A stretch of DNA of 64,000 bases from a virus, in IMG/VR virus record IMGVR_UViG_3300028666_000002. One strand, written 5' to 3'. Position 1 is the first letter of the stretch. Every line of letters starts with the position of its first letter. Shown piece by piece: positions 3,434 through 27,610 of this stretch. Below the pieces are notes generated by a model that was not told where the DNA came from, made no database searches, and was given only the letters and a program-made list of their open reading frames with translations. The translations under genes and the position numbers were made by a program.

Positions 3434-5680
3434 CTATTTTGTACGAGCGTTGATGTGTTCGTGGATCGACTCTCTGCTTCCACCAGTATGGGCGGGCAAA
3501 TTAACCTTATAATTCTGACCTTTAGGCGTTTTAACAGCCCAGGTATGGAAATTGTGGTCTTTAGTAGGAGGCGAAAGCTTACGATAAGTATGGCCTTTAT
3601 GTTCTCCTAATGAGGGGTGTCCCTTAGGAAGACCATGAATATACTCGGTGCCAGGTTCAGTGGGATGATATCCGCTTTGTTTAGCATGAGAAGGATCTGG
3701 TTCATAGCTCTTCTTCATATTTTCAGATTTAGGAAGATTTGGAGAGGGCATTTGTTTCAATTCATGAAGAGCTTCTTTGTGTTTAACTCTAGCCATATGA
3801 ACGTCGGCGCCTCTATAATCTGCACCTGCAGCAGAAACTCCACCTACTCTTTTTATGCCCTTTTTTCCATAAGCAATTGCTTGATCGGCTTGTGAATGTA
3901 CGCCTATTTCATGTCCGGTTTCTGCTTTTCCAAAATAACTTGCATACATCTTAGACAGTTTGCCTTCAGCCTGAACAGTCTTTTTTAATGCCAACACTCT
4001 ACCGATAGAGTCGATTTCTCCTTCGGCCAAATGAGGCATTCTTTTCTTCATATAGTCCTTAAACTGATTCTTTTTATCCCAAGTACTATAAGCTTGATCT
4101 GCACGCTCATACCAATGCGATTTTTCTTTCTTTTTCAAAGATCCACCAAATCCAAGTGCATTGTTGAATCCTGCCTGCACTCCTTCTGCGGTTACCGGTG
4201 CAGGTGAAGGCGAAGGCGTTGGAGCCGTAGGCGCCGTATCTTTCTTTAATTCTTCTTTTTTAATCATAGCATTCATCTTAGGACGTTTTTCAAGACTTTC
4301 TTTCCCCAATGCGGCGCCGCCTACCAATTGAGAAGGTGTAGCCATTGCAGATCCAGCGGTAAGAGCTTTTTTAAGATCTTCAGATTTTCTATTGTCAGAG
4401 AATTTTTTACCTTCAATTGTTTGTTTATGACTCGGATGTATTTTCAAACCAGTCTTCTCCTCTGCGTGATTATACATAGCAGAAGCAATTCCCTTCCTGC
4501 GATGCCTATGATCGACAAAGGTTTGTACGGGGTGCAAGCGTCCACCGGATGCCTTGGAATGATGCTCACTAAGTTCGGTCTCTCCAATATGATTACCTTT
4601 ATTATCAAATGCTTGAACTAAGTGTTGGCCGCCAGTATTAAAATTTCCCTTGGCATAACGTAAGGTATATCCTTCTTTTTTCCAATCTCCATTCTCACCT
4701 TTTGCTAATTTTTTTCTTGGATTCATTGCATTGATTTGTTTTGATTGTTCATGCAGATCTTTATATCGTGCCCAATGATCTGCCATCTCTGGAGCATCGC
4801 TTTTTCCGCCTGCTTTTATATGATCGTTGATTTTTCTAGACACTGCAGCCTTTCTGGCTCCTACTCTAGTTGCAGCCCCTCTCCATCGTTTATATTCGTC
4901 ATCTTCGCCCTTATCCATTTCTTCTGACATGGCTAGTTGGCTTCCAATGAATGCTCCACCGCCAGAGGCGCCTCCACCCTGACCGCCACCCGTGCTGGGT
5001 TCGTAGCCTGCACCAACATCCATTGCGGTACCTTTTACAACTTCATTGGTTTCATTTTGAGAAGTAGGTATTCTTTCGCTTTCTTTTTTCTGAAGAATTT
5101 CTTCATAAGTAGACTCAAACTTAAACAATTCCATTTCGCCTTTGAAAAGAGAGCCAAGTAGATTGTCTTTATTTGTCGATTCCTTAGGTGACGGCATTAG
5201 TTCAGCAACGCAAGTCTTATTGCAAGGTAAATTTGTGATCGTCACTTTACGAGCAATAGAACGAGTAATAGTCATTCCCTCTTTTGCTCCGGGGATTTTT
5301 GCCCCTTCTACTGAAAAACCCACGACAGGTGGTTCGTTGGGATGTTCAGCGTCGTCTTTAAACAAAGAGGCAACTTCCAAAGCAGATGGTTTTGGGTTCT
5401 TTGGATCATCAAAAAGACGACCCATTATATAAAGGAATGGAATCTTGTACTTATTCCAAAAATATGACTGCCTATCATCTTGACAGTCTTCCTTAGAGAA
5501 AATCTTGTGGGCTTTCAATATCTTACCACAAATCTGGGAAGGACTGTCGCTTTTGTGTTCCCAATTCAGAACCGCACCAATAAGAGAGGAGGTGTCTAGT
5601 CCTTTTAGATCCACTATTTCGCCGCTTGAATCTATCGCCTGAGAAGAGGCTATTCCATCAATATAAGAACACTTATTCAT
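3434..5680 (-). CDS. Prohead maturation protease with long C-terminal extension containing a GNAT domain
   Basis: N-term GIASSQAIDSSGEIV, LNWEH, GFSVEG, VTITNLPCNKT resemble HK97/Herelle-type protease; VDHRHRRKGIASAMY is an acetyl-CoA motif A. Confidence 0.8.
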   Translation of the reverse strand: MNKCSYIDGIASSQAIDSSGEIVDLKGLDTSSLIGAVLNWEHKSDSPSQICGKILKAHKIFSKEDCQDDRQSYFWNKYKIPFLYIMGRLFDDPKNPKPSALEVASLFKDDAEHPNEPPVVGFSVEGAKIPGAKEGMTITRSIARKVTITNLPCNKTCVAELMPSPKESTNKDNLLGSLFKGEMELFKFESTYEEILQKKESERIPTSQNETNEVVKGTAMDVGAGYEPSTGGGQGGGASGGGAFIGSQLAMSEEMDKGEDDEYKRWRGAATRVGARKAAVSRKINDHIKAGGKSDAPEMADHWARYKDLHEQSKQINAMNPRKKLAKGENGDWKKEGYTLRYAKGNFNTGGQHLVQAFDNKGNHIGETELSEHHSKASGGRLHPVQTFVDHRHRRKGIASAMYNHAEEKTGLKIHPSHKQTIEGKKFSDNRKSEDLKKALTAGSAMATPSQLVGGAALGKESLEKRPKMNAMIKKEELKKDTAPTAPTPSPSPAPVTAEGVQAGFNNALGFGGSLKKKEKSHWYERADQAYSTWDKKNQFKDYMKKRMPHLAEGEIDSIGRVLALKKTVQAEGKLSKMYASYFGKAETGHEIGVHSQADQAIAYGKKGIKRVGGVSAAGADYRGADVHMARVKHKEALHELKQMPSPNLPKSENMKKSYEPDPSHAKQSGYHPTEPGTEYIHGLPKGHPSLGEHKGHTYRKLSPPTKDHNFHTWAVKTPKGQNYKVNLPAHTGGSRESIHEHINARTK

Positions 5681-5686
5681 AAATAT

Positions 5687-5692
5687 AAGATT
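5687..5692 (-). promoter_or_regulatory. AATCTT putative late promoter, 6 nt upstream of protease ATG
   Basis: GGCAATCTTATATTTATG; motif recurs upstream of >12 late genes. Confidence 0.65.
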
Positions 5693-5887
5693 GCCGTATG
5701 TTTTTGAGATACTTCATAGCTATTTTATATCATGTAGTTATAGTAAAAGTGCGGTATTTTGATTATAAGTTATTGAAATTATATATTTTTTTTATCCGCA
5801 GCAATAGTTTAAGTATATCAAAGAGTTGTCATTTCTATCGAAATAGAAATGGAAAATGTGTCTAGACACAACTAAAGGAGATTTAAA

Positions 5888-6592: not shown

Positions 6593-6616
6593 TTGGTTGG
6601 ACTGGAGGGTTATACC

Positions 6617-7657
6617 ATGCAGTACACCGAAACACAGCTTTCAAAGCTTATACAGGACGTAGAACTAGAGTTCACGGCTCATTTGGCTAAGGCCGAAGAG
6701 GTCGGTAATACTCTTGCTAAGTCTGAAGATGGCGAACAGAAGCCTGAGAAAAAGCCGGAAGACGGCGAAAAGAAGCCGCCTTTCGAAGCTAAGCCCGAAG
6801 CTAAGCCCGAAGGTGAACAAAAGCCCGAAGGTGAAGAGAAACCTGAACAGGAAGCGGCGCCGGAAGGCGAAGCACATCCTGAGCAGGCTCCAAGCGAAGG
6901 CCATGATTATGATGAAGAGGACATGCAGCATATGCATAAAATGTATATGTCCATGTCAAAAGGCGAGCTAAAAGCACACCATGACGCGATTATGAAATGC
7001 GTTAGCGGTGGCGGAATGATGGGCAAGTCTGAAGAGGGTGGCGGAATTGGTAATACCAAATCTGAAAATCCTCCGCAGCCAAAAGTGAAGGGCGAGAACC
7101 TAGATTCTGATCCTAAAAATGGTGGAATTGATGCGGGTGCTCCTCACAATGCTCTTGGTCCGAAATCGCCAGCCAGCGATGCTAACGGCGCAAAGATTAA
7201 CAAATCTGAAGCTGCTAGACGAAATGGTGGAAAGATTGAAGAACAAGCGCCTCACAATTCGCCAGGTGCAAAATCACCGGCTAGCAAGGCAGATGGAGTT
7301 CAAATGCAAAAGTCAGAAAACACCGAAGTTGAGTTGCTTAAATCGGAACTTGGCTCGGCGAACACAAAATACGAAGAACTTAAGAAAAACTTTGATGGAG
7401 TTGCGGCTTTTTTGACCAAGCTGCTTGAGAAGAAAGCTGCTCCTGCAGGCAAGGCTATCACGTCCATGGATGTTATCGCGAAGAGCGAAGGCGCCGGGGA
7501 AGATAGTGAAAAGACACTTACGAAGGCTGATATTCATACCATTCTTTGTAAGAAAGCATCTGAACCTTCGTTACAGAAATCAGATAGAGACGCAATCAAC
7601 GTTTACTACGAACAAGGACAAGTAAACGTAACAGGAATTAGCCATTTGCTTAAATAG
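6617..7657 (+). CDS. Capsid scaffolding/core protein
   Basis: Acidic low-complexity protein directly before MCP, coiled coil, ~11 xK[S/A/G] motifs; ATG 6617 after GGAGG. Confidence 0.75.
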   Translation: MQYTETQLSKLIQDVELEFTAHLAKAEEVGNTLAKSEDGEQKPEKKPEDGEKKPPFEAKPEAKPEGEQKPEGEEKPEQEAAPEGEAHPEQAPSEGHDYDEEDMQHMHKMYMSMSKGELKAHHDAIMKCVSGGGMMGKSEEGGGIGNTKSENPPQPKVKGENLDSDPKNGGIDAGAPHNALGPKSPASDANGAKINKSEAARRNGGKIEEQAPHNSPGAKSPASKADGVQMQKSENTEVELLKSELGSANTKYEELKKNFDGVAAFLTKLLEKKAAPAGKAITSMDVIAKSEGAGEDSEKTLTKADIHTILCKKASEPSLQKSDRDAINVYYEQGQVNVTGISHLLK

Positions 7658-7683
7658 CAGTGGATTTTAATAAGGAGAATACA

Positions 7684-9081
7684 ATGATTGAACAACTTCA
7701 GTCACTTATGAAGGCGCTTGAAGCAGGAAGTTACAATGCTGCTCCAGGACAATTGGCTCAGGGAGCCGCTTTGATGGTCGAGGATCTCTCGCCCGTTATG
7801 CACAATGTAACGTTTGATGACAGTCATATTAAACTGCAAAAGATGCTTCCTTCGAAGGATGTGAAGTCTCAATTGCATCAGTTTAATCGTCAGTTGGATT
7901 ATGGTATCTTTGGTGGTTCGGCCCAGTTTGAAGGCGGAATCGGCGAAGAAGACACGTCTAACTATGTCCGTGCAGTGGTGCCGATGGCATACTACAGCAC
8001 GACTCGTAGAGTCACGGTTGCTGCTAACTACATCGGCGCGTTCGATGGCGTGAAGGCAGAAGATCGTGCGGCTGCGGACGCTGCGATGAAGCTCGCTGGC
8101 GATATCGAGTTCGACTCTTTCCGTGGACAGAGCGATTTCTCGAACGCGGGCGTGTTTGATGGTAACCCCCTTGCGGTTGCTAAGGTTCCGAATATGATTG
8201 GACTTGATCAACAGGTTCGTCAGTCGGACAGTCAGCAAAATACTCAGGATCTTATGTTTGCTGAATATGGTTCGGATCAGACGGTTGTACTGTCGGTCGG
8301 CGGAACTCTTACTCAGTCAGTGATCGAAGATAGTTCGGTTCGTTCGGCCATGAACATGGGCGCTGCGGACAGACTGGTTCTTGATCCGATCAGCTTGAGC
8401 GCGTATAACAAGATCGCGCACGCGAAAGAACGTATCATGCTTGCTGGCTCTGCTCAGGAAGCGACTGGTGCTCATTTGCGTACTCAGTGGACCTCTAGTG
8501 CGGTTGTCTCGCTCGAAGCTTCGCGCTTCCTGTCTGGCAAAACGCGCCCGGCGCGTCCGCGAAGTGGTAGCCCGGCGGCTCCGACGTTCACCATCGCTGA
8601 TGGTGGCCCGGCGGGTTCGTTGCTCCAAACCGGTAGCTATGCATATTATGTCACTGCGGTGACGATGCGTGGTGAGTCTCTCCCGTCTGCGGCGCAGACT
8701 CAGGCTGTTACGGCTGGCGATAAGGTCACTCTGACCATCACCGGTACGGGACAGTACTACTGCGTGTATCGCTCGGATCTCGGTGGAACGGCAGCGGTTG
8801 CCAAGTTCATCGGTAAGGTCGCGGCGAATGGCGCTGGATCGGGTGCGACGTTCACGGATCTCGGAAATCGTCAACCTGGCTCGGTCACGGGCTTCTTGGT
8901 TCAGGCGAATACGATGGGATTCGGACAGTTGGCTCCTTACAGCAAGCTGAAACTTGCGGTTAGCGATCTGTCACTTCCGGAGGCTCATTTCCGCTTCTTG
9001 TCCTTGGCTGCATACCAACCGAGGAAGAACGTGATCCTTGAGAATATCACGGGTCAGTTGGCTCCGAATAATCCTACGTAA
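7684..9081 (+). CDS. Major capsid protein (Herelleviridae/SPO1-like, with Fn3-like insertion)
   Basis: KALEAG...GAALMVEDL N-arm, YAYYVTAV..GES insertion, PRKNVILENI C-term; ATG 7684 after AAGGAG; terminator follows. Confidence 0.9.
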   Translation: MIEQLQSLMKALEAGSYNAAPGQLAQGAALMVEDLSPVMHNVTFDDSHIKLQKMLPSKDVKSQLHQFNRQLDYGIFGGSAQFEGGIGEEDTSNYVRAVVPMAYYSTTRRVTVAANYIGAFDGVKAEDRAAADAAMKLAGDIEFDSFRGQSDFSNAGVFDGNPLAVAKVPNMIGLDQQVRQSDSQQNTQDLMFAEYGSDQTVVLSVGGTLTQSVIEDSSVRSAMNMGAADRLVLDPISLSAYNKIAHAKERIMLAGSAQEATGAHLRTQWTSSAVVSLEASRFLSGKTRPARPRSGSPAAPTFTIADGGPAGSLLQTGSYAYYVTAVTMRGESLPSAAQTQAVTAGDKVTLTITGTGQYYCVYRSDLGGTAAVAKFIGKVAANGAGSGATFTDLGNRQPGSVTGFLVQANTMGFGQLAPYSKLKLAVSDLSLPEAHFRFLSLAAYQPRKNVILENITGQLAPNNPT

Positions 9082-9182: not shown

Positions 9183-9938
9183 ATGAGTAAGATTAAATAC
9201 ACAAATGATATTATTTCTAAAGCAGTTGAAATGAGAATGGATGGCGAAGCTATTCCTGATATTGTAAAAGCTACAGGAATGAAAAAGCCTAGCCTACAAA
9301 AACTCTTTAGGGAAAGGGGAATAATTCTAACCCCAGAACAAAAGAAGGCGGCGCTAGCTAGACGATGGTTAAATCACGAACCAATAGTGGATGGGATGAA
9401 AAGATGCTCTAAGTGTAAAGAGAATAAACCGGTAGATGACTTCCATAAAAATGAGAAAAGACTTACAGGTTTAGTATCTTCTTGTAAGAAGTGCTATCAA
9501 GATTTTTATGAGGAAAATTCAGAAGAAATTAAGGCTAGAGTAAAAATATACAAAAATAAAAATCCAGATCTTGTTAAATTATGGGATAAAAATCGATATT
9601 TAGCTAAAACAGATGAATACATAGCTAACGCTGCTAAATGGGACAAAGAAAATCCAGAAAAACGTAAAGAAATAAAAAGAGAATACGACAAAAGAAATCA
9701 ACCTGCAAAAAATTCCAGAACGGCCTTTTATCGTGCTCAAAAAATCCAAGCTACCCCAAAATGGCTATCTGACCATCAAAAAGAAGAGATTAAACGTATT
9801 TACGTCAATTGTCCTAAGGGATTTCACGTCGATCATATCGTTCCACTAAACGGGGAAGAAGTTAGAGGTCTTCACGTACCTTGGAACTTACAATATCTAC
9901 CAGCAGCAGAAAACCTAAGAAAATCTAACAAGCTATAG
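9183..9938 (+). CDS. HNH homing endonuclease
   Basis: N-term HTH, CSKC..CKKC zinc finger, HVDHIVPL...GLHVPWNLQYL..ENLRKSNK. Confidence 0.9.
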   Translation: MSKIKYTNDIISKAVEMRMDGEAIPDIVKATGMKKPSLQKLFRERGIILTPEQKKAALARRWLNHEPIVDGMKRCSKCKENKPVDDFHKNEKRLTGLVSSCKKCYQDFYEENSEEIKARVKIYKNKNPDLVKLWDKNRYLAKTDEYIANAAKWDKENPEKRKEIKREYDKRNQPAKNSRTAFYRAQKIQATPKWLSDHQKEEIKRIYVNCPKGFHVDHIVPLNGEEVRGLHVPWNLQYLPAAENLRKSNKL

Positions 9939-10646: not shown

Positions 10647-12779
10647 ATGGCTTTAACTAATCATACTATTATAGCTCTTCAGGATGCCCTCACCTTGGTA
10701 TCTGCCGGTAATGAGTTAGCCAGCGCAATCACAAGCGGCGCTAAACTTTCTCCGGATACTCTTACCAGGCTGCAAGATGCCATGAGTAATAAAAATATTG
10801 GTAACGATCTTCAGGCAGCTATCTTGGGAACGCGTCCTCTTTCGTTTATCGATCTTCAATACATGATTGACGGTTTCGCAGATCAAGTGGTTGCTGGAAA
10901 CGTGGCCTCTAATATGGCTGGCGGTATCTCTCCTGCAGCGATCCCCCTTCTTCATAATCTCTTTTCTGTTGTTCCAAATCCTATCACGGCTCTTGGAACC
11001 AATCCTCCGAAGAATGTTTCGTTGCCTGGTGCGACTACTTTTACGGTATCGAATCTTGGACTTCCGACTACGGTTACTCTCGGACTGTCGGCTGGAAGTA
11101 CCTTTCCTTCTACTGGCCCTGGATCTTCTTTTACGTTAGCAAATGCTGGAAATACAAATCAATATATGGTTTGGTACAACGTTGCTGGCGGTAGCAATAC
11201 GAATCCTACCCCTCCTGGTTTTACAGGAATTGAAGTTACTATTAATAGCACCGACACCAATACTGTCGTGGCCACCAAAACGGCACTGGCTATCGCAAGC
11301 GCTTTGGCTGGAATGACTTCTACCGTAACTTCTAATACGGTTACCATTGTCATCAATGCGGTTCTTAGCATGGTCGCTACTCCGACTTTCTCTCCTGCGG
11401 CTGGATCATACTATGGAACGCAATCGGTTTCTTTGTCTTCGGCTACGGCTGGAGCAGCTTTTTACTATACTACAGACGGTTCGATTCCCACTACTCTGAG
11501 TCCTCTTTACAGTACGCCCATTTCTGTTTCTGCAAATGAGACTGTAAATGTGTTGGCTACGAAGGCTGGGTTTTCAAACTCTACTGTTGGCACTGCGGCT
11601 TATGTAATCTCGGTACCAGGAACTGTCGCTACTCCGACTTTCTCTCCTGCAGCTGGATCTTATTCTGGTACGCAGTCGGTGACGGTCTCTTCGATTACGG
11701 CTGGATCAACTTTTTACTATACTACGGACGGTTCTACTCCGACTACGGGAAGCACGCTATATACTGGTCCAATTTCGGTTGCTTCTAGCGAAACCGTAAA
11801 AGTGTTGGGAGTTAAGGCTGGATTTTCAAATTCTGCTATTGGCTCTGCGGCATATACTATCTCTGGGGCGGGAACTGTCGCTACTCCGACTTTCTTCCCG
11901 GCTGCTGGAACTTATGGTACCACGCAATCTGTGACTCTTTCTTCTGTTACAGCTGGAGCAACTTTCTACTACACTACGGACGGATCTACTCCAACTACTG
12001 GAAGCACTTTGTATACCGGAGCAATTAGTGTTGCGACTGGTGAGACTTTAAAAGTATTAGCTACAAAGGCTGGTTTAACGAACTCTGCAATCGCAAGCGC
12101 AGCATATGTTATCGGTCCTACAGCTGTTAATCTCGCAACTGCTGGTAACTACAGAATTCTGTCGGAAGCTGGTATCAGCGATACGTCTGGATCTGCAATC
12201 ACCGGTTCGATGGCAGTAAGCCCAATAGCGCACACGGCTATCACCGGATTTGTTCTCACACTCGATGGCGGTGGACAATTCTCTACCGCACCTAATGTGA
12301 CTGGCGATATCTATGCGGCTGATTATGCTGTACCAACTCCAGCCAATCTTACGACAGCTATTGGCGACATGACGACCGCATACAACGATGCTGCAGGTCG
12401 TACTCTCAATTCGATTGTTAATATTGGTAGTGGAAACTTGGGTGGACTCACCCTTACTCCCGGCCTTTATACGTGGTCTACCGGCGTTACGATTCCTACC
12501 ACTCTTACGTTGAGTGGCGGACCAAGCGACGTGTTCATTATGCAGATTAGCGGTACGCTCAACTTAGCGGCCTCTACGCATATCGTACTTACTGGTGGAT
12601 TGCTGGCAAGCAACGTCTTCTGGCAAGTTACTGGCGCCGTGACGCTCGGTGTAAGTTCTATATTCAATGGTATCATTTTGTCAGCGACAAATATTGCAGT
12701 TCAAACTACAGCAACCGTACACGGAAGACTGTACGCGCAGACTGCGGTTACGTTGCAAGATAACATCGTTGGTAACTAA
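10647..12779 (+). CDS. Virion protein: N-terminal helical repeats + 3 chitobiase/Fn3-like repeats + C-terminal DUF3494 ice-binding domain
   Basis: 3x VATPTF.PAAG.Y...YYTTDGS.PT; TLTPGLY, SNVFWQV, GRLYAQTAVTL; AATCTT at 10591. Confidence 0.85.
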   Translation: MALTNHTIIALQDALTLVSAGNELASAITSGAKLSPDTLTRLQDAMSNKNIGNDLQAAILGTRPLSFIDLQYMIDGFADQVVAGNVASNMAGGISPAAIPLLHNLFSVVPNPITALGTNPPKNVSLPGATTFTVSNLGLPTTVTLGLSAGSTFPSTGPGSSFTLANAGNTNQYMVWYNVAGGSNTNPTPPGFTGIEVTINSTDTNTVVATKTALAIASALAGMTSTVTSNTVTIVINAVLSMVATPTFSPAAGSYYGTQSVSLSSATAGAAFYYTTDGSIPTTLSPLYSTPISVSANETVNVLATKAGFSNSTVGTAAYVISVPGTVATPTFSPAAGSYSGTQSVTVSSITAGSTFYYTTDGSTPTTGSTLYTGPISVASSETVKVLGVKAGFSNSAIGSAAYTISGAGTVATPTFFPAAGTYGTTQSVTLSSVTAGATFYYTTDGSTPTTGSTLYTGAISVATGETLKVLATKAGLTNSAIASAAYVIGPTAVNLATAGNYRILSEAGISDTSGSAITGSMAVSPIAHTAITGFVLTLDGGGQFSTAPNVTGDIYAADYAVPTPANLTTAIGDMTTAYNDAAGRTLNSIVNIGSGNLGGLTLTPGLYTWSTGVTIPTTLTLSGGPSDVFIMQISGTLNLAASTHIVLTGGLLASNVFWQVTGAVTLGVSSIFNGIILSATNIAVQTTATVHGRLYAQTAVTLQDNIVGN

Positions 12780-13794: not shown

Positions 13795-14550
13795 ATGAAC
13801 AAGAAATTCTATGTATATTGTCACAGAAATCCGGAAAATAATCAAGTCCAATATATTGGGAAAGGACAGGGAAGAAGAGCCTATTCACTAACAAAACGTA
13901 GTGCCGCACATTTGGAATGGATAGGCCTGTTATCTAAAAAAACATTGAAACCTATAATTGATATTATAGAATATTTTGATAATGAAAAGGATGCTTTAAA
14001 CAAAGAAATAGAATTAATTAAATATTACAAACATTTAGGAGTTCAATTATTAAACATTTCCGAAGGTGGTTCGCCTGGTTCAGGCTTAACTGGACAAAAA
14101 AATGGAGCTTACGGTAGAAAAAGATTTGATTTAATAAAAAGAAATCAGGCAAATAAAGGCAAAACATTAACAGAAATTTATGGAGAACAACGGGCCATAG
14201 AAATAAAAAAGACTCTATCAGAAGCCACCATTGGTGAAAATAATCCAATGTATGGAAAATCTGGCGAAAATGCACCTTGTTTTGGTAGAAATGGTGAATT
14301 GCACCCTATGTATGGCAAAAAACACAAAGAAGAATCTAAGCTTAAAATAAGCATTTCCTTAAGAGAAAATAGGGGCATAAAAATTCAATGTTCTAATGGT
14401 ATTGTTTATGCTTCTTTATCTCAAGCTGCGAAAGAATTACATATAGGAAGAAAATATATATCTGAAATTTTGAAAAAATCAAGAATTAGCCACAAAGGGC
14501 TAACATTTCAATATGTTAACTCAACTATTGGAAATCTCAAGCAATCTTAA
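13795..14550 (+). CDS. GIY-YIG homing endonuclease (NUMOD3/NUMOD1)
   Basis: YVY..YIGKG..R, E..LI...N; NPMYGK repeats; C-term HTH; AT-rich. Confidence 0.85.
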   Translation: MNKKFYVYCHRNPENNQVQYIGKGQGRRAYSLTKRSAAHLEWIGLLSKKTLKPIIDIIEYFDNEKDALNKEIELIKYYKHLGVQLLNISEGGSPGSGLTGQKNGAYGRKRFDLIKRNQANKGKTLTEIYGEQRAIEIKKTLSEATIGENNPMYGKSGENAPCFGRNGELHPMYGKKHKEESKLKISISLRENRGIKIQCSNGIVYASLSQAAKELHIGRKYISEILKKSRISHKGLTFQYVNSTIGNLKQS

Positions 14551-16675: not shown

Positions 16676-17292
16676 TGGGTTTTGTATATAAAATAACCAA
16701 TATATTGACTGATAAAAAATATATTGGTCTTACCACAAGAAGCCTAGAGGAAAGATTTAGAAAACATCTTTTTGACGCTTTTGATGCACGAAGAAAAAAT
16801 GCTATTCACTATGCTTTAAGAAAATATGGTAAGAAAAATTTTGTTATAGAGGCAATTTTTGAAAGCAATTCATTAAATGAATTAAATGATAAAGAGAATT
16901 ATTTTATACAAAAATATGACACTTTGTATCCTAATGGTTATAATTTGATAGTTGGTGGCGGCGTTCGTATAGTATCAGAAATTACAAAAAACAGAATGAG
17001 AAAGGCACAATTAGGTAAAAAGCAATCTAAAAAAACAAGAAAAAAGAGATCTGACTCTCTAAAGGGCAAACCTCAAAAAAGGGTTTTTGTAAATAAAAGA
17101 GCTAAATCTATATGTAAACCTATTATGGAATTAACAACTGGTTTAACATTTAATTCTATTAAAGAATCAGCGAAATATTTTAATATAAGTTCTAGGGGTA
17201 TAAGCAAAAATCTTCACAACCAATCTGTTCATTATTTTGGTAAAAAATTTATTTTCCTAGATAAAGGAGAGTTTCATGCAAATAACAGCTAA
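16675..17292 (+). CDS. GIY-YIG homing endonuclease
   Basis: VYKITN..KKYIGLT..ERF..H, E..FI..GYN, NUMOD3. Confidence 0.9.
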   Translation: MGFVYKITNILTDKKYIGLTTRSLEERFRKHLFDAFDARRKNAIHYALRKYGKKNFVIEAIFESNSLNELNDKENYFIQKYDTLYPNGYNLIVGGGVRIVSEITKNRMRKAQLGKKQSKKTRKKRSDSLKGKPQKRVFVNKRAKSICKPIMELTTGLTFNSIKESAKYFNISSRGISKNLHNQSVHYFGKKFIFLDKGEFHANNS

Positions 17293-17776
17293 TGATGTAG
17301 ATAGAATCGAAGATTCTGGAACCATTGATGGAAATCCAGTAAAACTGGTTAGAACCAAAGGGGGGTTTTGGCTAGCGTTGGGAAGACGAAAATACAAGTC
17401 ATCTGAGGATGTTTTGGCGGCTGGGTCTCATCCTGCTATCGTAAAATATCAATTAGAAAAGCAATTCCCAGATTACCATCCAGCCATGATGAAGTCCGAA
17501 GGATTTGTAGAACCCCTTGTTATGAGTCATTCGCATTTTCTATCAGATGATTTGAGAAAAAATGGCTATGACATCTTCTCTGTTCAGACAGGGCCAAGCG
17601 TAGAATTCCTTATCACAAAACATAACAGTCAAATTGCTACCGTGAATAGCGAATTCTCTAAAGATCACCTGATTATTGAAAATCTAAATATCCCCAAAGA
17701 ATTTGCTAAAGCTATGGCGGGAGCTACAGTTGAAAAATCTGTTTCTTGTGAGGCAGGATTAAAACTGAAGAAATAA
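17276..17776 (+). CDS. Hypothetical head-associated protein
   Basis: AAGGAG RBS; MMKSEG motif. Confidence 0.5.
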   Translation: MQITANDVDRIEDSGTIDGNPVKLVRTKGGFWLALGRRKYKSSEDVLAAGSHPAIVKYQLEKQFPDYHPAMMKSEGFVEPLVMSHSHFLSDDLRKNGYDIFSVQTGPSVEFLITKHNSQIATVNSEFSKDHLIIENLNIPKEFAKAMAGATVEKSVSCEAGLKLKK

Positions 17777-19631: not shown

Positions 19632-20630
19632 ATGTCTAATGCTGATCTATTTTTAAAGAAAGCTCTAGGTGAAGATTTTTTTGAATCTTTAGCCAAGGTC
19701 GAACTGTATAAATATGGCACCAGAAGCGTATTAGATATTGAAGAAATCAAAACGGCACTCCAGATAGTTCCTCGCACTATTATCGCCCTTCTTATCAGAG
19801 AGCTTAGTCCCATGAATGTGGGTGATACCAAAGAAATTCCTCTCCTTGTGGGCGTTAATGCTATGATTAGGGCTACTAAACATGAGAGAGATTGTTTTAG
19901 TGGTGATGTTGAAGAAGATTCCAAGAAAATAGCAGAATTCAAATTTAGATCCTTGCCTGGGGTTGGCTTGATAATCATGTCCGCCTTTGAACTTTACGAT
20001 ATGGAGAATCTGATTAACTCTCCAAGTGCATCAGATTTGCCAATGGCACCTGCCCCACTTTCACAGCCTAATTTCGCAGAAGATATCGACAGTAAAGTAC
20101 AAAAGCTCATAGATGAAAGATTGGCCCTTCACAGTCTTGTTGAACAGGTTGTAGAAAAAAAGATAGCACACAAAGATGCTATTCACCAGATGATGTTGGC
20201 TAAGCTTACAGAAGAAATCAGTTCTTTAAAAAATAAGATGGTAGTTGTGTCTGCCAAAACAGAATTGGCTAGAAAAGAGGCAGAAGTGGCTAAACAACTA
20301 AATCCAGCTGTATTTGAGATTGAGGAAGAAAAAGAAACGCCCACTCCTATGAAGAAAAGTCGGCCTTTGCAAGAATTCTTGGAAAAGAGAAAGAAACCTA
20401 AAGAATTCTCTGTACAGATGGCAAAGGGAGAGATGGTTTCTTGTCCAGATTGTGGCAAGGACATTTTTAATGGAAACTCACTAACTCCTTGTATTTGTTA
20501 TGGAGATTATGGTAAAATATTTTTGAAGAAGACGGAGAATGGAATAAAAGTTAGATTCTCTAGAAGTTGGGATATTGATAATATAGAAATGTTATTAGAA
20601 GTATTGAGAAAAAAGAATAAACATGTCTAA
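19632..20630 (+). CDS. Hypothetical head-associated protein (coiled coil + CPDC..CIC zinc finger)
   Basis: LKKAL, MKKS and MAKGE motifs. Confidence 0.5.
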   Translation: MSNADLFLKKALGEDFFESLAKVELYKYGTRSVLDIEEIKTALQIVPRTIIALLIRELSPMNVGDTKEIPLLVGVNAMIRATKHERDCFSGDVEEDSKKIAEFKFRSLPGVGLIIMSAFELYDMENLINSPSASDLPMAPAPLSQPNFAEDIDSKVQKLIDERLALHSLVEQVVEKKIAHKDAIHQMMLAKLTEEISSLKNKMVVVSAKTELARKEAEVAKQLNPAVFEIEEEKETPTPMKKSRPLQEFLEKRKKPKEFSVQMAKGEMVSCPDCGKDIFNGNSLTPCICYGDYGKIFLKKTENGIKVRFSRSWDIDNIEMLLEVLRKKNKHV

Positions 20631-21423
20631 AAAAATTACAATAGAAGAGATCCAAAAAAGAATTTTGAAGATTCACGGGAATACTATTGTTTTAGATATA
20701 GACACTTACGTAGATACTCATACTCGTGCACGTTTTATAGATAGGGAATGTGGAGAATGGTGGGCTATACCAAAAAATGTGTATGGTTTAAAGAATGGTC
20801 ACCCAAATAAAAGAGCAAAAAAAATAAGTAAATCAAAAACTTTAACTATAGATCAGGTAAAAGAAAAAATAAGAGAAAAACACGGAAATTCTGTTATTTT
20901 GATTGAATCTACCTATATAAACACTATTACAAAATGTAAATTTATAGATGAAAAATATGGTGAATGGGAAACTGTTTCACTTAATGTTTTGTATGACAAC
21001 TGTAGGCATCCCAATGGCGGGAAAGAAAGGCGAGAAAATGCTCTCTTAAAGAGTTATGGCGTAAAAAATGCCACTCAAAATAAAGAGATAGCCTTGAGGG
21101 CTGCTAAAAGTGCCAAAAATACTTATATAAAATTCCACTGGAAAACGAATGAAGAACTTGTGTGTCAAGGTTCTTGGGAAGCAAAGGTGGTGGATTATTT
21201 TAATACCAACAAAACCGAGTACGATTGGCAATCTAAAACATTTGCTATGCCAGATGGTAAAACTTATAGACCTGATTTATTTTTAATTAATGAAAATAAA
21301 TGGGTAGAAATCAAGGGAAGATTTAGAATTACGGACAAGTTAAAATGGGAGTGGTTTAAATCTGAAAACCCTACAGCAGAAGTCTGGCAAAAAAGTAAGC
21401 TAAAAGAAATGGGAATTTTATAA
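20623..21423 (+). CDS. PD-(D/E)XK-type homing endonuclease
   Basis: Two N-terminal repeats (I...HGN.I.L...TY....T...FID...GEW), C-term YRPDLFL..WVEIKG. Confidence 0.75.
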   Translation: MSKKITIEEIQKRILKIHGNTIVLDIDTYVDTHTRARFIDRECGEWWAIPKNVYGLKNGHPNKRAKKISKSKTLTIDQVKEKIREKHGNSVILIESTYINTITKCKFIDEKYGEWETVSLNVLYDNCRHPNGGKERRENALLKSYGVKNATQNKEIALRAAKSAKNTYIKFHWKTNEELVCQGSWEAKVVDYFNTNKTEYDWQSKTFAMPDGKTYRPDLFLINENKWVEIKGRFRITDKLKWEWFKSENPTAEVWQKSKLKEMGIL

Positions 21424-21424
21424 C

Positions 21425-23503
21425 ATGGATAAATCAGATAACATTGTATACATATCTTACGATGCGGATAGTGCGGGTCGCAAAATCGGTCAAGCGGTTT
21501 TGAACGATGATCCTGATGAAATGTCCAGAATTTCTGAACGCATTAAGGTCGGCAACGATCTGTTTAGCCGATGGGCAAAAGAACGAGATGGTAAGCAATA
21601 TTCTTCTGGTGGCGATCAAGGCGTATACGCTATTGATAAAAAGCATGTTGAAGGATTGGAAAAGCTAAGAAAGGATTACCACTATCTTACCGGCTTAACC
21701 GTATCTATAGGAATAGGTGTCCATCTATCCGAATCGGGACAAGCCCTCTTAATGGCAAAGTTAAAAGGGAAAAATCAGATAGTGTCTTTTGACAAAGAAA
21801 CAAAGAAAGAGATTCAGCAAATAAAAAAGCGAGTTAAGAAAGGAAAATTTAAGTCCATGGAAGAATATAAGATTGCAGAATCTTACCTGGACAAATCTGA
21901 GGCGGTTAAATCTATGAAAAAAGCTGAAAGTATCAATAATCAGAAATTAGAGGATGCTACTGAAACCGCCAATTATCAAGAGAAGCCAGAGGCTACTCAT
22001 GATGATTGTGAATATTGCAATCATCAAGAGAAGCCAGAGGCTACTCATGATGATTGTGAATATTGCAATCAAACTGATGGGATTGATCCTAATCATTGTG
22101 AATTTTGTCATGATGCTGAAACTGCAGAAGGTGAAGAGCCCTGCGAATTTTGCGATAGTTCAAAAGAATTAAATAATCCCGAAGCGTGTGAGTTTTGCAA
22201 TAGTGCTGAAACTCCAGAAGGCGAAGAGCCTTGCAAATTTTGTAGTTATGATGAGCCAGTAGATGAGGCGTTAGATTTTCCTGAGTTGGCAGAACAAGAT
22301 GATGAATTTGCTAATGCCCCTGAAAACCAGGGCTATGGAGAAAATGTAAAAACTCATCCAGACGGTCTTGGTACGAGCCTTGATTCCAACAATGATCAAG
22401 CTCCCGCTGGTTCGCCAGAAGAACATGAGCAATATGAAAAAATGGGAATGACTCCGCCAATGATAGGAAAGCCTACTTCTGAAGATCATGCCCCGCTCGG
22501 CCAAAATGCTCCCATGGCCTATGGTGCTGCTCCAGAATCAGCTAATGAAGATCCAGATGCAGAAACATTGGCCTATCAAGATCCTAGGGCCGCTGAAGGG
22601 GAAGCTGCAATAGATCCAGAAGATAATCATTCTAAAGAGGCCTTACTATCTATCGCTAGTGAAATAGAAAATGATGGTAATCCTCCCGCCCATGAAGCTG
22701 ACAGCATAGACGATACTCAAATTACTAATGATAGAATGGAAGGCAACACTAGTAGGCCAGATGGGTTCGAACAAAACACTCCTAGTGATATGGGCACAGC
22801 TGGTCCTAATAATACCGATCCAAATGATAACGAACCAGACTTTTATGGTGTTTTAGAGGAAGGTTTGAATCATGACGCCGATGGTATTCAAAAAGAAAAG
22901 GCTATCAAGTCTGTTTCTCAAGCACTAATGCAATTCAAGGGCTGTAAAGATATGCTAGAACAGTCTAAGGCTCAGATGCCACAACTTTATCAGGCTTCTA
23001 TTTCTATGCTAAAAGCCATGATTGAAATGGCTACTATGCTCGGATTAGGACAAAGCGGGGCCGGATTAGGACAAGAATCAGGACAAAATTCTGAATTAGG
23101 ACAAACACAAGAATCTCTGATGCCAGAACAACCTGAGCAATCGGCACAGCCCCAACAGGAGAATGACTGGCATGAGCCCTTTCCTACACATCCAGATCAG
23201 GGTGGAGAAGCTAAGCCCGGTCACGCGCCGTCTAGCAATGAAGAGGAGGATTCTCCCTCCCCACAGTCCCAAGCCGGTAGCGTAGGAACGCCTATCGGCA
23301 AATTATCAGCCAAACACACTACCGAACACGTTGCTAGAAATCCGATGCCAATAGGAGCAATCAATGTTTCTGGTCAGCAGAAGGTTATGGATGATCAGGG
23401 TAAAATAAGATTCATCGATAGAAAGCAAGGTCTTGTTATGGGTCCGTCTGGGGTTCCCGTAAAGCCTCCAAAAATGGGCAATGAAGTTTCTAAAAATAGG
23501 TAA
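21425..23503 (+). CDS. mCpol (minimal CRISPR polymerase/GGDEF-like) domain fused to Cys-rich and acidic head-protein region
   Basis: YISYDADSAGRKI, SGGDQG, TVSIGIG..LSESGQALLMAKLKGKN; followed by LDKSE/MKKAE motifs. Confidence 0.7.
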   Translation: MDKSDNIVYISYDADSAGRKIGQAVLNDDPDEMSRISERIKVGNDLFSRWAKERDGKQYSSGGDQGVYAIDKKHVEGLEKLRKDYHYLTGLTVSIGIGVHLSESGQALLMAKLKGKNQIVSFDKETKKEIQQIKKRVKKGKFKSMEEYKIAESYLDKSEAVKSMKKAESINNQKLEDATETANYQEKPEATHDDCEYCNHQEKPEATHDDCEYCNQTDGIDPNHCEFCHDAETAEGEEPCEFCDSSKELNNPEACEFCNSAETPEGEEPCKFCSYDEPVDEALDFPELAEQDDEFANAPENQGYGENVKTHPDGLGTSLDSNNDQAPAGSPEEHEQYEKMGMTPPMIGKPTSEDHAPLGQNAPMAYGAAPESANEDPDAETLAYQDPRAAEGEAAIDPEDNHSKEALLSIASEIENDGNPPAHEADSIDDTQITNDRMEGNTSRPDGFEQNTPSDMGTAGPNNTDPNDNEPDFYGVLEEGLNHDADGIQKEKAIKSVSQALMQFKGCKDMLEQSKAQMPQLYQASISMLKAMIEMATMLGLGQSGAGLGQESGQNSELGQTQESLMPEQPEQSAQPQQENDWHEPFPTHPDQGGEAKPGHAPSSNEEEDSPSPQSQAGSVGTPIGKLSAKHTTEHVARNPMPIGAINVSGQQKVMDDQGKIRFIDRKQGLVMGPSGVPVKPPKMGNEVSKNR
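21975..22070 (+). repeat. Perfect 48-bp tandem duplication (QEKPEATHDDCEYCN x2)
   Basis: Identical units starting at 21975 and 22023. Confidence 0.95.
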
Positions 23504-23506
23504 GAA

Positions 23507-24256
23507 ATGTCTTTAAGAATTAAGATAGATGTTCAATCTCTTTCAAAGCAATTAAAAGAATATGCTATGGAAGCAGAAGCAGATATGAGGAAAGGGGTAG
23601 CCAATCTATCTGCTTTATCTCATGCTAAAATTAGAGATCTAGCTGCAGAAAAATTACATTCTACCAGAAATACATTTTTAGACAATCTATCTCAAGTAGA
23701 GGAAGTGGTTCCTGGCGTATTTGTTATAACATTGAATGAAGCAGCATTATTTATAGAAGAAGGGATGGAAAGACATGATATGAAGCCCGATCTTTTAAAG
23801 AAGAATGCTAAAGTGGGCAAAAATGGAAGATATAAGATAATTCCATTCGAACATTCTAAACTTCCGCAGAACATGACTGGAAAAGAACAGAATATAGTAC
23901 AACAAATTAAACAGAAATTGAAGGAAGAAAAAGTACCATTTAAGAAAATTGAATATGACGCAAAGGGAAATCCTAAAACAGGAAAGCTTCATAGTTTTAA
24001 TTGGGGTGGAGAAAGGCCCGGCAAGGGCAATACTGGAGTCCTACAAAGAGTTAGTATTTATCAATCAAAAGGGCCTACAGGAAATATTCGTAGAGATATA
24101 ATGACATTTAGAACGGTGAGCGAAGGACAGACAGATAAGTGGTACCATCCAGGAATTAAAGCGGCGAAAATATTAGATGAAGCTGGAGACTGGGCTGAAA
24201 AAGAATTTTACAATTCAATACTTCCAGAAATCATTGCAAAATGGAATGGTAGATAA
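23507..24256 (+). CDS. Neck/tail-completion protein (HK97 gp10-like)
   Basis: IEEG...DMKPDLL, IIPFEH, TFRTVS..W.HPG motifs. Confidence 0.65.
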   Translation: MSLRIKIDVQSLSKQLKEYAMEAEADMRKGVANLSALSHAKIRDLAAEKLHSTRNTFLDNLSQVEEVVPGVFVITLNEAALFIEEGMERHDMKPDLLKKNAKVGKNGRYKIIPFEHSKLPQNMTGKEQNIVQQIKQKLKEEKVPFKKIEYDAKGNPKTGKLHSFNWGGERPGKGNTGVLQRVSIYQSKGPTGNIRRDIMTFRTVSEGQTDKWYHPGIKAAKILDEAGDWAEKEFYNSILPEIIAKWNGR

Positions 24257-25022
24257 ACAATAATCCTTTTACAGATTTCATTTTCCCTTTACAAACTTTC
24301 ACTATATCACTATTGTCACATTTATTTTTTGCAGCTGCTTCTATAATTGAATTATAGATTTCCAAAATAATCCTGTCTGAATTAATTTTTGCTACCCTCT
24401 TATTGTTTGTAATAGGTTTATTTTTTGGTATTGATTTTTTTCTCGGTAGTACTGCATCTATTTTTTTATTTTTAAAAAATTTCCACTGATATCCGCCAGC
24501 ACTTTTTTTCTTTCCTTTACAACATTTTCCTATATCGGAATTGTTAATATTGGTAATTAAAAAAGCATCTGCGCTAGAAGAATGTTCTTTTATAAAAAAA
24601 CCATCTTTCGTATATTGATATACAGGGATAAGGTGTGCCTCTCTTATTTTTCTTTTTTGATCTGCGCTGTGTTTCCTACCTTTTCCGGCTTTAGACAAAA
24701 GTTTGCGGGTTTCATCTGATATAAAACTCCCCCTACCATTACCTCCACTTGATAAGTTATAGCCATTTTTCATAGAATTATAGTATTCTATCCAATAAAT
24801 TTCTTTATTATTGAGATCTTCCAATGAATCTGCCGTATCTATAGTCTCTATTTTAAAGTTTTCAACCCCATATTTTTTGATAGCAAAAGAAAGTTTTCTA
24901 CATCCTCTATCGGGCTTTAAGTGATATTTAAAATGTTCTAAAACTCTTTCTTCTACCGTTCTAGTAGTTTGACCTATATAGCTTTTGCCATCTATGATAT
25001 TAGTAAGTTTGTAGACATACAT
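24231..25022 (-). CDS. GIY-YIG homing endonuclease (NUMOD3, 2x NUMOD1), antisense to operon
   Basis: VYKLTN..SYIGQT..ER..H, EIYWI..GYN. Confidence 0.9.
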   Translation of the reverse strand: MYVYKLTNIIDGKSYIGQTTRTVEERVLEHFKYHLKPDRGCRKLSFAIKKYGVENFKIETIDTADSLEDLNNKEIYWIEYYNSMKNGYNLSSGGNGRGSFISDETRKLLSKAGKGRKHSADQKRKIREAHLIPVYQYTKDGFFIKEHSSSADAFLITNINNSDIGKCCKGKKKSAGGYQWKFFKNKKIDAVLPRKKSIPKNKPITNNKRVAKINSDRIILEIYNSIIEAAAKNKCDNSDIVKVCKGKMKSVKGLLFIYHSILQ

Positions 25023-25110
25023 ATAGAAAAGATTGTGTTAGGCATTTCGAAAATGGGAATCTCATACACTAATCTTAATATAAATATTCAAATAAATCAA
25101 TAGGGTAATT

Positions 25111-26124: not shown

Positions 26125-26141
26125 GCAATCTTATTAATACT

Positions 26142-26486
26142 ATGCCAGGATTTATTAAAACGCCAGCTGATGAGAAAAAGTGGAACGCCATCAAGCATTC
26201 TGTAGCGAAACAACGAGGTAAAAGCGTTGAAGATTTTACAGATAGAGATTGGGCTACGGTCAATGGAGCTTGGCATAAGAGTGAATTTGAAGAAATCACC
26301 AAATCTATCGCTTCCATGCCACGCATGCCAAGTGGGATGAAGATGCCTAAGCCTAAAAGCATGCCTCAAGCCCTCGATAAACCTTCGAAGTTTTTCAAAT
26401 CAGAACCAGAAGAATTTTCTCATATGAAACACCCTACTTTGATGAAATTACGTGATTTTTTGAAACATACTCGTAGTAAAAAATAA
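26142..26486 (+). CDS. Small basic head-associated protein
   Basis: MPGFIKTPADEKKW; WHKSE, ITKSI and FFKSE motifs. Confidence 0.55.
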   Translation: MPGFIKTPADEKKWNAIKHSVAKQRGKSVEDFTDRDWATVNGAWHKSEFEEITKSIASMPRMPSGMKMPKPKSMPQALDKPSKFFKSEPEEFSHMKHPTLMKLRDFLKHTRSKK

Positions 26487-26563
26487 GATTAATAAAATCA
26501 AATACTTAAGGTAAATACTAGGCAGGGGCACACAATCTTAACACTAGGTATGGAGACTTGAGC

Positions 26564-27610
26564 ATGGCTAATTCAGATAAACAGCTTACGGCAAAACAAG
26601 TGGCGACTGCTGTATTAGAAAAAGTAGGCGAACTTCTGCACAAATGTGAGCTTATGAAGGCAGAAAGTTACAAACCTCAAAATTCTGGTAAAGAAAATGC
26701 TAAGCCATCTGAACATAACTCTAAAGATGCTATGCAACATGCTGATGGACCGGGGCCGAAGGGTGAAATTCATCCTAAAGAAACAGAGGTTGGGGCGCCG
26801 ACCAATGAAAGCAGGCCTACTCCTGCTCCGGGAAATAACCCGAAAGAAAAGGCGGAAGGCAATAACGAGCTTGCAGGCACCACGCCAACTCAAGTTGGTC
26901 AAGATGGAAAGAATAAGCCTGGATATGATGAAATGAAAGGCCACCTAAAGTTGGCAAAGTTTATTGGACGTATGGAAGGGAAGAGAGAAAGAAATCTTTC
27001 TAATACGCAGACTCAAGGAGAGTCAACGACTCAACATAAAGAAGTTGTTAGCGGGATGAATAAATCAGAAGATTTGGCAAAAGCCGAAGCATTTAACCCT
27101 GCTAAAGCTACGGCACCTGCGGCTACGGCTGCAAAGCCGGGGTCTGCTAATTCTCCGACTAAAACTAACACAGAAACTGGTGGTTCAAGCCCCGGTGGCG
27201 CTTCAACGGGCGGAGTCGGAAGCGGTCTTGGTGGTGCTGGCACAGGCGGCGCCGCAACAGGCGGCGCTTCTACCGGTGGTGCTGGCACGGTAAATGTAAC
27301 AATTTCTGGTAGTAGCAGTACGGATACGAGTTCTGGAGCCGGTGCTAAAAAAGGTGACGGCGGTGGCAAACCTGCAGCCCCAATCACCATCAATATAAGC
27401 AATGTTGGTGGTACAACCGATGCTGGTAATGTTGCAAGCGGTGACGGTCCTGGTGCTTCGGGTTCAGGCGGTACTGCTCCGAATGGCTTTGGTGGTGGCG
27501 GCGGCGGAGCTTCTCCAGATGAGCCAAAGAATTTTAGTACGCAAGGCAAAGATAAGATGGTGAAGAGTCAGTACGGTATGCACACTCTTGAATGGCGCAA
27601 GGCTAACTAA
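26564..27610 (+). CDS. Low-complexity Gly/Ser-rich head-associated protein
   Basis: LMKAE, MNKSE, LAKAE and MVKSQ motifs; ATG after GGAG. Confidence 0.55.
   Translation: MANSDKQLTAKQVATAVLEKVGELLHKCELMKAESYKPQNSGKENAKPSEHNSKDAMQHADGPGPKGEIHPKETEVGAPTNESRPTPAPGNNPKEKAEGNNELAGTTPTQVGQDGKNKPGYDEMKGHLKLAKFIGRMEGKRERNLSNTQTQGESTTQHKEVVSGMNKSEDLAKAEAFNPAKATAPAATAAKPGSANSPTKTNTETGGSSPGGASTGGVGSGLGGAGTGGAATGGASTGGAGTVNVTISGSSSTDTSSGAGAKKGDGGGKPAAPITINISNVGGTTDAGNVASGDGPGASGSGGTAPNGFGGGGGGASPDEPKNFSTQGKDKMVKSQYGMHTLEWRKAN

Follow-up and report, generated by a model that had tools for sequence, protein, structure and literature searches.

The window analysed here, a 64,000-nt stretch of IMG/VR virus record IMGVR_UViG_3300028666_000002, is a phage structural module, as judged by open reading frame (ORF) calling and family scans. 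Its region 3434-27610 is studied below, where one short lysine motif, most likely the cut site of a capsid protease, marks the scaffold, the head protease and several enzyme-bearing proteins. The region begins with a 748-residue ORF on the minus strand (3434-5680), followed by a divergent 234-residue protein, a 354-residue scaffold-like protein (6593-7657) and the major capsid protein (MCP; 7660-9081); downstream of the MCP lie about 18 kb of mainly unannotated genes, broken up by five homing-endonuclease-like genes, and then the tail sheath (27895-30045) and the tube. The virus is an Mx1-like myovirus of about 170 kb, represented in the window by its head-to-tail module, and its nearest isolated phage is Myxococcus phage Mx1 (52% identity in the MCP, 40% in the N-terminal domain of the protease); the Herelleviridae are more remote capsid relatives. 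Comparisons drew on 71 related loci in IMG/VR, many within 150-177-kb genomes, with the regions from MCP to sheath retrieved for ten complete relatives and one relative taken as a whole genome; the complete relative G001 comprises 176,870 bp and 261 ORFs.

A lysine motif in the head module

An earlier note on this DNA had described a recurrent hydrophobic-x-K pattern followed by Ser, Ala or Gly, dense in the scaffold and the protease tail and much rarer in sheath, tube and fibres, and all the sites that it listed are present in the ORFs to which it assigned them. In its four-residue form the pattern is weakly specific (61 occurrences versus 34 expected inside the region, 41 versus 40 outside). 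The informative motif is [LMIFV]-x-K-[SAG]-[ED], the fifth position of which is common to all ten scaffold sites and most others. Measured against composition-preserving shuffles, which supply all expected counts given here, this strict motif occurs 26 times versus 4.2 expected inside 3434-27610 and 3 times versus 4.6 in the rest of the window. Because the motif was defined on scaffold and protease, the remaining ORFs of the region constitute an independent test, and these contain 11 strict sites versus 3.3 expected (Poisson P 6e-4). The head module of G001 holds 19 sites versus 3.5 expected (P 5e-9), with 17 versus 23 in the other 49,380 residues. The scan of the window found no strict site in sheath, tube or fibres, as the note had anticipated, and none in the neck and early proteins.

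Within the window, observed and expected strict sites are 10 and 0.38 for the scaffold, 5 and 0.53 for the protease ORF, 3 and 0.16 for ORF 26558 (p ~0.001) and 3 and 0.39 for ORF 21425 (p ~0.005), one of the last three being the initiator MDKSD. When the ORFs of the loci are clustered, the enriched families (mean sites/expected) are the scaffold (6.7/0.38), the protease ORFs (2.1/0.48), the families of 19632 (1.47/0.30), 17276 (1.0/0.15) and 15929 (1.07/0.27) and the portal (1.05/0.29), together with a post-portal protein family; at or below expectation are the MCP body, 14583, 15050, 18133, 19176, 23507, 25111, sheath and terminase. Composition, as the source of these counts, was rejected and is left with a negligible probability: the proteins concerned are rich in Lys, Glu, Ser and Ala and the four-residue motif is just ~1.8-fold enriched, but the shuffles preserve composition, the reversed, shifted, Arg-for-Lys and charge-swapped controls are all flat, and the Lys-rich homing endonucleases of the same region hold 0-1 site. 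Across 63 scaffold homologues, the forward motif is found 423 times, the reversed one 13, the Arg-for-Lys one 2 and the charge-swapped one 3.

The scaffolding protein (6593-7657, + strand) carries ten predicted cut sites, LAKAE31, LAKSE41, MSKGE121, MGKSE143, INKSE202, MQKSE238, LLKSE248, IAKSE295, LTKAD309 and LQKSD327. Despite strong sequence divergence, all 63 distinct scaffold homologues from the 71 loci and Mx1 bear 2-11 sites; that of Mx1 is 38% identical, in the last third only. The homologues start with MQYTETQ (6617), and the true start is probably ATG 6617 rather than TTG 6593 of the longest ORF. In the MCP (7660-9081, + strand; phrog_752, E 2e-43), the predicted short propeptide MIEQLQSLMK↓ALEAG, in which the arrow denotes the presumed scissile bond, has a leader of about ten residues, since most homologues begin with MIEQLQSLMK, and the start is probably 7684 rather than GTG 7660. 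Every full-length MCP relative contains LxKALE[AV]G, down to 50% identity.

The protease and its polyprotein tail

The first ~170 residues of the 748-residue ORF (5171-5680, - strand) form a domain that probably is a capsid-maturation serine protease with a fold of the assemblin/gp21/HK97-gp4 type. This domain is 40% identical to the N-terminus of the 'putative prohead protease' of Mx1 and partially matches phrog_1028 (head maturation protease) over residues 2-44; moreover, His42 and Ser123, the latter within GFS[IV]EG, are invariant among 28 homologues at 43-71% identity and would be the catalytic residues. An AlphaFold2 (AF2) model of the domain (pLDDT, the predicted local distance difference test, 83.5) retrieves herpesvirus assemblins and T4 gp21 as its top 19 Foldseek matches, a coherent list of individually weak matches (E 0.035-0.18, template modelling score 0.27-0.46); a PDB profile search with the domain gave no match. 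The gene adjoins those of scaffold and MCP and is divergent from 5888, scaffold and MCP, a neighbourhood shared by Mx1 and 53 loci.

Residues 171-748 (3434-5170, - strand) make up a C-terminal tail with the character of a polyprotein, whose predicted cut sites are LFK↓GE178, MDK↓GE255, LAK↓GE325, LKK↓AL436, FGK↓AE583, LPK↓SE649 and MKK↓SY655. Many of 48 homologous ORFs likewise have a site where the protease domain ends (residues 171-207). Protease ORFs range from 302 to 947 residues, and their modular tails vary among relatives; a Pfam scan of the tails of ten of them returned only DUF6321, DUF5661 and a sub-threshold FlgM. Residues 517-590 (4132-3911, - strand) correspond to a helical module, W..RAE..Y..W.K...F..FM..R.P.[LM]TKGE[IV].AIGQ..AL.KS, conserved in many protease ORFs close to the C-terminus; in the window's copy the internal site has become LAEGE, with loss of the Lys.

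Enclosed between LAK↓GE and LKK↓AL, residues 330-435 (4376-4693, - strand) are probably a minimal GNAT acetyltransferase cassette, to judge from family profiles and a motif. Pfam gives Acetyltransf_1 (E 6e-4, 20.4 bits versus a cut-off of 20.7), together with Acetyltransf_10 and Acetyltransf_7 below their cut-offs; GNAT motif A (R/Q-x-x-G-x-G/A) reads HRRKGIA, and H[RQ]RKG[LI][AG] is conserved in all four copies. PDB profile matches of this region are nearly all GNATs at weak E-values (0.01-2), and neither a single-sequence PDB search nor a word search of 5.8 billion proteins produced a match. All four known cassettes start with hydrophobic-x-KGE-x-GDW; relatives contribute three of these, within cargo-island proteins (see below).

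Directly behind the cassette, residues 434-470 (4271-4381, - strand) are a copy of the N-terminal arm of the MCP, K↓AL site included, which BLASTP aligns with the MCP N-terminus (7699-7809, + strand) at E 2e-7 and 51% identity over 37 residues. By regular expression, such a mimic of the arm is present in 31 of 49 protease ORFs, namely in 30 of 48 relatives and in the window's own. This copy may serve as an anchor that carries the protease-GNAT polyprotein into the shell; a complex prediction of the MCP (residues 41-465) with the mimic scored 0.00, which is evidence neither way.

With an invariant Lys and a GNAT in the protease ORF, the motif could also be read as a docking or modification motif, with the Lys acylated, perhaps by the GNAT, or cross-linked, or as a helix-capping pattern in assembly proteins. 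This is highly unlikely: the motif is found throughout the family but the GNAT in few relatives only, the sites sit in linkers behind folded domains and exactly where the protease domain stops, and some ten copies per scaffold fit the known fate of scaffolds, which is digestion. In addition, the N-terminal site of the MCP matches the place where related capsid proteins, such as those of HK97 and the Herelleviridae, are trimmed. In both the protease and the 15929 models, the motif sites are located where model confidence falls behind the folded domain. Excess, directionality and conservation of position with a free P2 all suggest a protease recognition site common to scaffold, protease tail and MCP N-terminus, much as the earlier note had proposed.

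Other motif-bearing families and the cargo island

Four further families between the MCP and the sheath carry the motif. The two-domain protein 17276-17776 (+ strand) has a conserved linker site, MMK↓SE71, which falls into one alignment column between the domains in 32 of 35 distinct homologues; P2 is free there (M, N, C, Q, T, A), and P3, P1, P1' and P2' are kept. Protein 19632-20630 (+ strand) bears a conserved MAK↓GE263 ahead of a C-terminal CPDC...CxC zinc-ribbon domain, and the site lies ~70 residues from the C-terminus in most members, including the Mx1 orthologue (VVKSE244); a protein-atlas search with 19632 gave only sub-threshold leads, the best of which was a zinc-finger cluster at 0.76. 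The small protein 26142-26486 (+ strand) contains FFK↓SE84, with F[FG]K[SA]E near the C-terminus in about 8 of 12 relatives' proteins at this position. The low-complexity, scaffold-like protein 26558-27610 (+ strand) combines an N-terminal helix ending in LMK↓AE32 with MNK↓SE167 and LAK↓AE173. Proteins at the latter position are 130-539 residues long and hardly alignable, but sites are found in 13 of 13, within the first 36 residues in 12; their leader, kkYTakeaa..vl.k..e.LkKSE, resembles that of the scaffold, qYTetql.kli..ve.ef..hLaKAE.

The stretch between the homologues of 15050 and 17276 differs in gene content from phage to phage and is referred to here as the cargo island. In the window it encodes protein 15929-16675 (+ strand), composed of a 2H phosphoesterase (residues ~10-160), the sites FKK↓SL163 and MLK↓SE191 and a C-terminal SLT remnant. 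Its assignment as a 2H enzyme follows from the predicted fold and from H42 (HMSLK) and H124 (HITI), the two HxS/T motifs, which are invariant in 20 homologues. The AF2 model (pLDDT 89.5) has 2H enzymes for almost all of its top 40-odd Foldseek matches, among them the 2',5'-phosphodiesterase (PDE) of rotavirus VP3 (8.5e-4), a penguinpox cGAMP PDE, AKAP18, a PDE of phage BCSR5, LigT and Acb1. A PDB profile search matched 1vdx (E 0.05), and the Pfam scan gave no match.

Of the SLT domain (PF01464), the window's 15929 retains just the C-terminal half, and the ESSGGK segment is missing. The island protein of at least nine relatives includes an SLT lytic transglycosylase; ESSGGK, the catalytic segment, is intact in those aligned, and the relatives' domains reach or come near the Pfam threshold. 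This island protein also bears a hydrophobic helix. In several of these relatives (L022, L024, L026, L054), 2H and full SLT are joined in one polypeptide and separated by motif sites. Known phages, T7 with its gp16 for example, use SLT at the entry stage, and the fusion of 2H to an entry-stage lysin is the best sequence-level argument for a cargo that travels in the virion. Among 29 members of the 15929 family, about 10, all in relatives, possess an N-terminal leader ending in the motif, some of these being short leaders that end in LxKAE; no such leader is present in the window's 15929, 17276 and 21425, the sites of which are internal.

Elsewhere, the island encodes other domains. That of Mx1 comprises a 1479-residue NUDIX protein with three sites and a 619-residue kinase with two; an ORF of another relative (L037:2303-3505, - strand) has a sub-threshold match to S-AdoMet lyase (E 2e-5) followed by MKKSE/LKKSE; and the 2081-residue island protein of G008 (L100:12733-18978, - strand) contains tandem GNAT cassettes, each beginning with FGKGE. 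Sites recur at the domain junctions of the hypervariable island, 15929 included.

The third putative enzyme lies outside the island, in the 692-residue protein 21425-23503 (+ strand), which consists of an mCpol palm (residues 9-121), LDK↓SE155, MKK↓AE164, CxxC repeats, an acidic disordered region and a conserved C-terminal part. The mCpol domain (minimal CRISPR polymerase, PF18182) is matched at E 1.3e-11 and 45.3 bits versus a cut-off of 26.4, over profile positions 1-113 of 114; the palm motifs YDADS and GGDQG are present, and YDxD and GGD[EQ] are kept in most homologues. No partner effector (2TM-beta or CARF), as in Panoptes, is found among the neighbours, which are conserved virion-module genes and homing endonucleases; mCpol is here a domain of a larger protein and not part of a defence operon. 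The 21425 protein is conserved in the module, Mx1 included. In several relatives, the conserved last ~55 residues of the family form a separate small downstream ORF (L069 6904-7080/7086-8558, L077 4230-6017/6080-6238, L083 3778-5484/5517-5705), which could stem from gene splitting, a frameshift or an artefact of sequencing.

There is a sizeable chance, if short of even, that 21425 is a conserved neck, tail or non-virion protein, neither substrate nor cargo, whose two sites are a lineage-specific accident. Strict sites are lacking from most homologues, namely those in L077, L083, L084, L091-L093, L095 and L098-L100, YL[DE]K[SA]E is confined to the window, L075, L004 and L010, and the family members in L012 and L013 have no mCpol domain. 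Set against this, the two strict sites are nine residues apart exactly at the domain boundary, in a protein whose excess of sites is given above, the Mx1 orthologue has a pair eight residues apart (VQKSE273 and IPKAE281), and the flanking genes 19632, 26142 and 26558 bear conserved sites. Although not a trait of the family, cleavage after mCpol is plausible for the window's phage on this evidence.

The remaining genes of the window include the five homing-endonuclease-like genes, of the HNH/EndoVII (9183-9938, +), NUMOD3 (13795-14550, +), GIY-YIG (16675-17292, +), HNH (20623-21423, +) and GIY-YIG (24231-25022, -) types; most relatives lack such genes at these five positions within the structural module. 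Between the capsid and neck genes, a 710-residue protein (10647-12779, +) with an Ice_binding domain (E 6e-65) and three CHB_HEX_C/Fn3-associated repeats, present in only ~12 relatives, may be a head fibre or decoration. On the far side, a nicotinamide/nicotinate phosphoribosyltransferase (983-2461, -; NAPRTase, E 4e-37) and a 257-residue partner (2489-3262, -) adjoin the protease gene and are likely an NAD-salvage pair, kept in some relatives (L097).

Proposed mechanism and comparison with known systems

From these observations we infer that the motif is a cleavage site with the scissile bond after Lys and that its bearers are encapsidated; the protease works only in the prohead, and its substrates must therefore be inside. 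The account that best explains the whole, and that we consider probably correct, is that the prohead protease reads a Lys code on the scaffold, the MCP, its own tail and a defined set of cargo proteins. It would recognise a hydrophobic residue at P3, any residue at P2, Lys at P1, Ser, Ala or Gly at P1' and Glu or Asp at P2', with hydrophobic-x-K↓A-L-x-A-G as a special form at the MCP N-terminus. In the prohead, it would chop the scaffold into ~11 pieces, take the 10-residue leader off the capsid protein, free itself from the tail that bears the GNAT cassette and the copy of the arm, and cut the inter-domain linkers of 15929, 17276, 19632, 26142, 26558 and, in this lineage, 21425. Comparison among relatives makes both cleavage and prohead loading appear well supported.

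Several observations weigh against this account. Concerning the enzymes, the fold matches of the protease carry weak E-values, its ORF has no match to a Pfam peptidase family (S77, S78, S21) at E <= 0.01, and the GNAT falls 0.3 bits short of the Pfam threshold. In the window's 15929, the conserved junction site, FKKSL, is without an acidic P2', the strict MLKSE191 is unconserved, an N-terminal leader is lacking and sites border the 2H domain only C-terminally; a site after mCpol occurs in only ~5 of ~20 homologues, which are near relatives of the window, and in the Mx1 orthologue the palm domain is degenerate. The single sites of 15929, 17276, 19632 and 26142 are non-significant within the window alone (p 0.1-0.27), and their support comes from relatives that are mutually non-independent. 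Because motif-bearing genes are interspersed with motif-free genes from the neck region, gene order leaves a location in the head interior non-obvious, and the genome note on Mx1 contains no virion proteomics. The scissile bond could also lie after the acidic residue, as in the x-E↓ rule of T4 or phiKZ, but this candidate was rejected as less parsimonious because MCP K-A-L-E and scaffold K-[SAG]-E share only hydrophobic-x-K-small. Finally, cleavage alone implies neither retention nor ejection, since T4 scaffold fragments leave the head.

The earlier note's picture of three enzyme domains delimited by the motif needs to be qualified accordingly. The 2H domain is borne out by fold and invariant motifs and mCpol by its Pfam score, whereas the GNAT is probable only; the GNAT is flanked on both sides, as claimed, the 2H on one, and the mCpol site is limited to near relatives. 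Likewise, the sites that the note reported in 15929, 17276, 19632, 21425, 26142 and 26558 are there, and several are conserved in position, but the single ones carry little weight by themselves and that of mCpol is not family-wide.

It is doubtful, though far from implausible, that the enzymes, once freed, remain in the filled head and pass into the cell along with the DNA as pre-made effectors. If they did, the ejected 2H enzyme might degrade cyclic or 2'-5' nucleotide alarm signals, with GNAT and mCpol acting on other targets. A somewhat unlikely alternative is that the system serves morphogenesis alone, the cut proteins being assembly factors, such as scaffold-like or core proteins and portal accessories, whose fragments exit before or during packaging and the enzymes acting in the producing cell or the assembling head, so that none is delivered. 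Scaffold and 26558-position proteins, with their many sites, do resemble disposable low-complexity core proteins, what the window retains of the SLT is catalytically dead, heads normally lose propeptides and scaffold fragments (PMC10052503), and an ejection signal is not readable from sequence. What speaks for delivery is that relatives fuse 2H to an intact SLT lysin, useful at entry alone, that a hypervariable island with defence-related 2H, NUDIX, kinase, GNAT and sub-threshold SAM-lyase (S-AdoMet lyase) domains shows a pattern typical of conflict genes rather than of assembly factors, and that the T4 internal proteins (IPs) and Alt, P1 Dar and the SPN3US E proteins are kept and ejected as such cargo.

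A bolder extension, for which only a low probability is claimed, is that Mx1-like phages load and release swappable capsid modules (2H, GNAT, mCpol cyclase, SLT, NUDIX, kinase and a possible SAM lyase), which would pass into the cell with the DNA as pre-made counter-defence, and that these modules of the Lys code would sit either in the hypervariable cargo island or inside the protease gene anchored by the arm copy. Panoptes-type guards are triggered by loss of a decoy nucleotide (PMC12657230, PMC12657218), and Acb1 and other 2H enzymes set Panoptes off through their removal of the mCpol product (PMC12657230). As part of the same speculative extension, 2H and mCpol might work together, the former destroying alarm nucleotides and the latter replacing the decoy whose loss sets off such guards.

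Should the code prove real, sequence would reveal what uncultured phages of a large, widespread group carry in their heads, and Mx1 on Myxococcus xanthus, a cultivable member, offers a direct test bed; purely by way of context, phage Mx4 is stopped by a CBASS and type III CRISPR island from which Mx1 escapes (PMC11506125). The orphan families 17276, 19632, 26142 and 26558 and the phage-borne mCpol would gain a first functional context. Encapsidation through a copy of the capsid arm in the protease tail, a feature common to the Herelleviridae, would also be suggested, and the copy could, like the capsid-targeting sequence (CTS) of T4, pack foreign proteins.

For a single code that the protease reads on the capsid protein, the scaffold, itself and proteins lodged in the head or ejected from it, T4 and the SPN3US/phiKZ group provide established precedents (PMC10052503, PMC7411985, PMC9024508). 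In the T4 system, with its CTS, gp21 trims the capsid protein (gp23), destroys the scaffold (gp22), cuts itself and processes IPI-III and Alt; the short leaders of the internal proteins end in the cut motif, and some of the cargo consists of enzymes injected with the DNA (PMC9024508, PMC5512222). The T4 motif is (L/I)-x-Glu, whereas here a Lys at the presumed P1 is followed by small and acidic residues and the protease has no Pfam S77 match; moreover, many sites are internal between domains instead of following an N-terminal leader, and the predicted cargo is 2H, GNAT and mCpol. SPN3US gp245 has nine head proteins as substrates, itself, the portal and ejection proteins among them (PMC10052503), and SPN3US, phiKZ and 201phi2-1 resemble the system predicted here in using one motif across head proteins, in a protease that sheds its own C-terminal part and in propeptides that are cut repeatedly (PMC10052503, PMC7411985). 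The motifs of these giant phages end in Glu (A/S/G-x-E), however, and their much larger heads contain an inner body, as opposed to a phage of ~170 kb with a Herelleviridae-type capsid protein.

Within the Herelleviridae, phage CP-51 offers a parallel at the sequence level. Its MCP (gp34; 25% identity) has LNK↓ALSAG at the matching place, its scaffold (gp33) contains 13 hydrophobic-x-K-[SAG] sites, and the K↓AL.AG string occurs both at the N-terminus of the MCP (encoded at 5863-7272 of L112) and, within a copy of the capsid arm, in the tail of the gp32 protease (encoded at 4249-5010). Its sites are without an acidic P2', its protease has 253 residues and no enzyme insert, and between MCP and sheath it has six small genes and no cargo island. 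These data uphold the link to the Herelleviridae drawn in the earlier note; its statement that the A511 capsid protein is cut after a Lys draws here on this comparison with CP-51, since literature searches on capsid proteins of A511 and other Herelleviridae yielded no usable report of cleavage at Lys.

The Dar system of P1 similarly has several large head proteins of a myovirus, some of them processed, that are injected to protect the incoming DNA (PMC9024508), but it belongs to another capsid lineage, with other cargo and no shared cut-site code described. Comparable in cargo are the polyvalent proteins (Iyer et al. 2017), multi-enzyme proteins whose genes lie among those of the virion and for which packaging and injection have been predicted; 2H, NUDIX and GNAT are listed among their domains (PMC5512222), with 2H proposed to degrade defence nucleotides (PMC5512222). 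Their processing is ascribed mainly to embedded zincin-like peptidases, whereas here it is the motif of the prohead protease that separates the modules, one of them within the protease gene itself. New in relation to all of these are the Lys code of this lineage, with a looser form in the Herelleviridae (CP-51), the cargo island, a protease ORF that houses an enzyme cassette, the copy of the capsid arm and mCpol.

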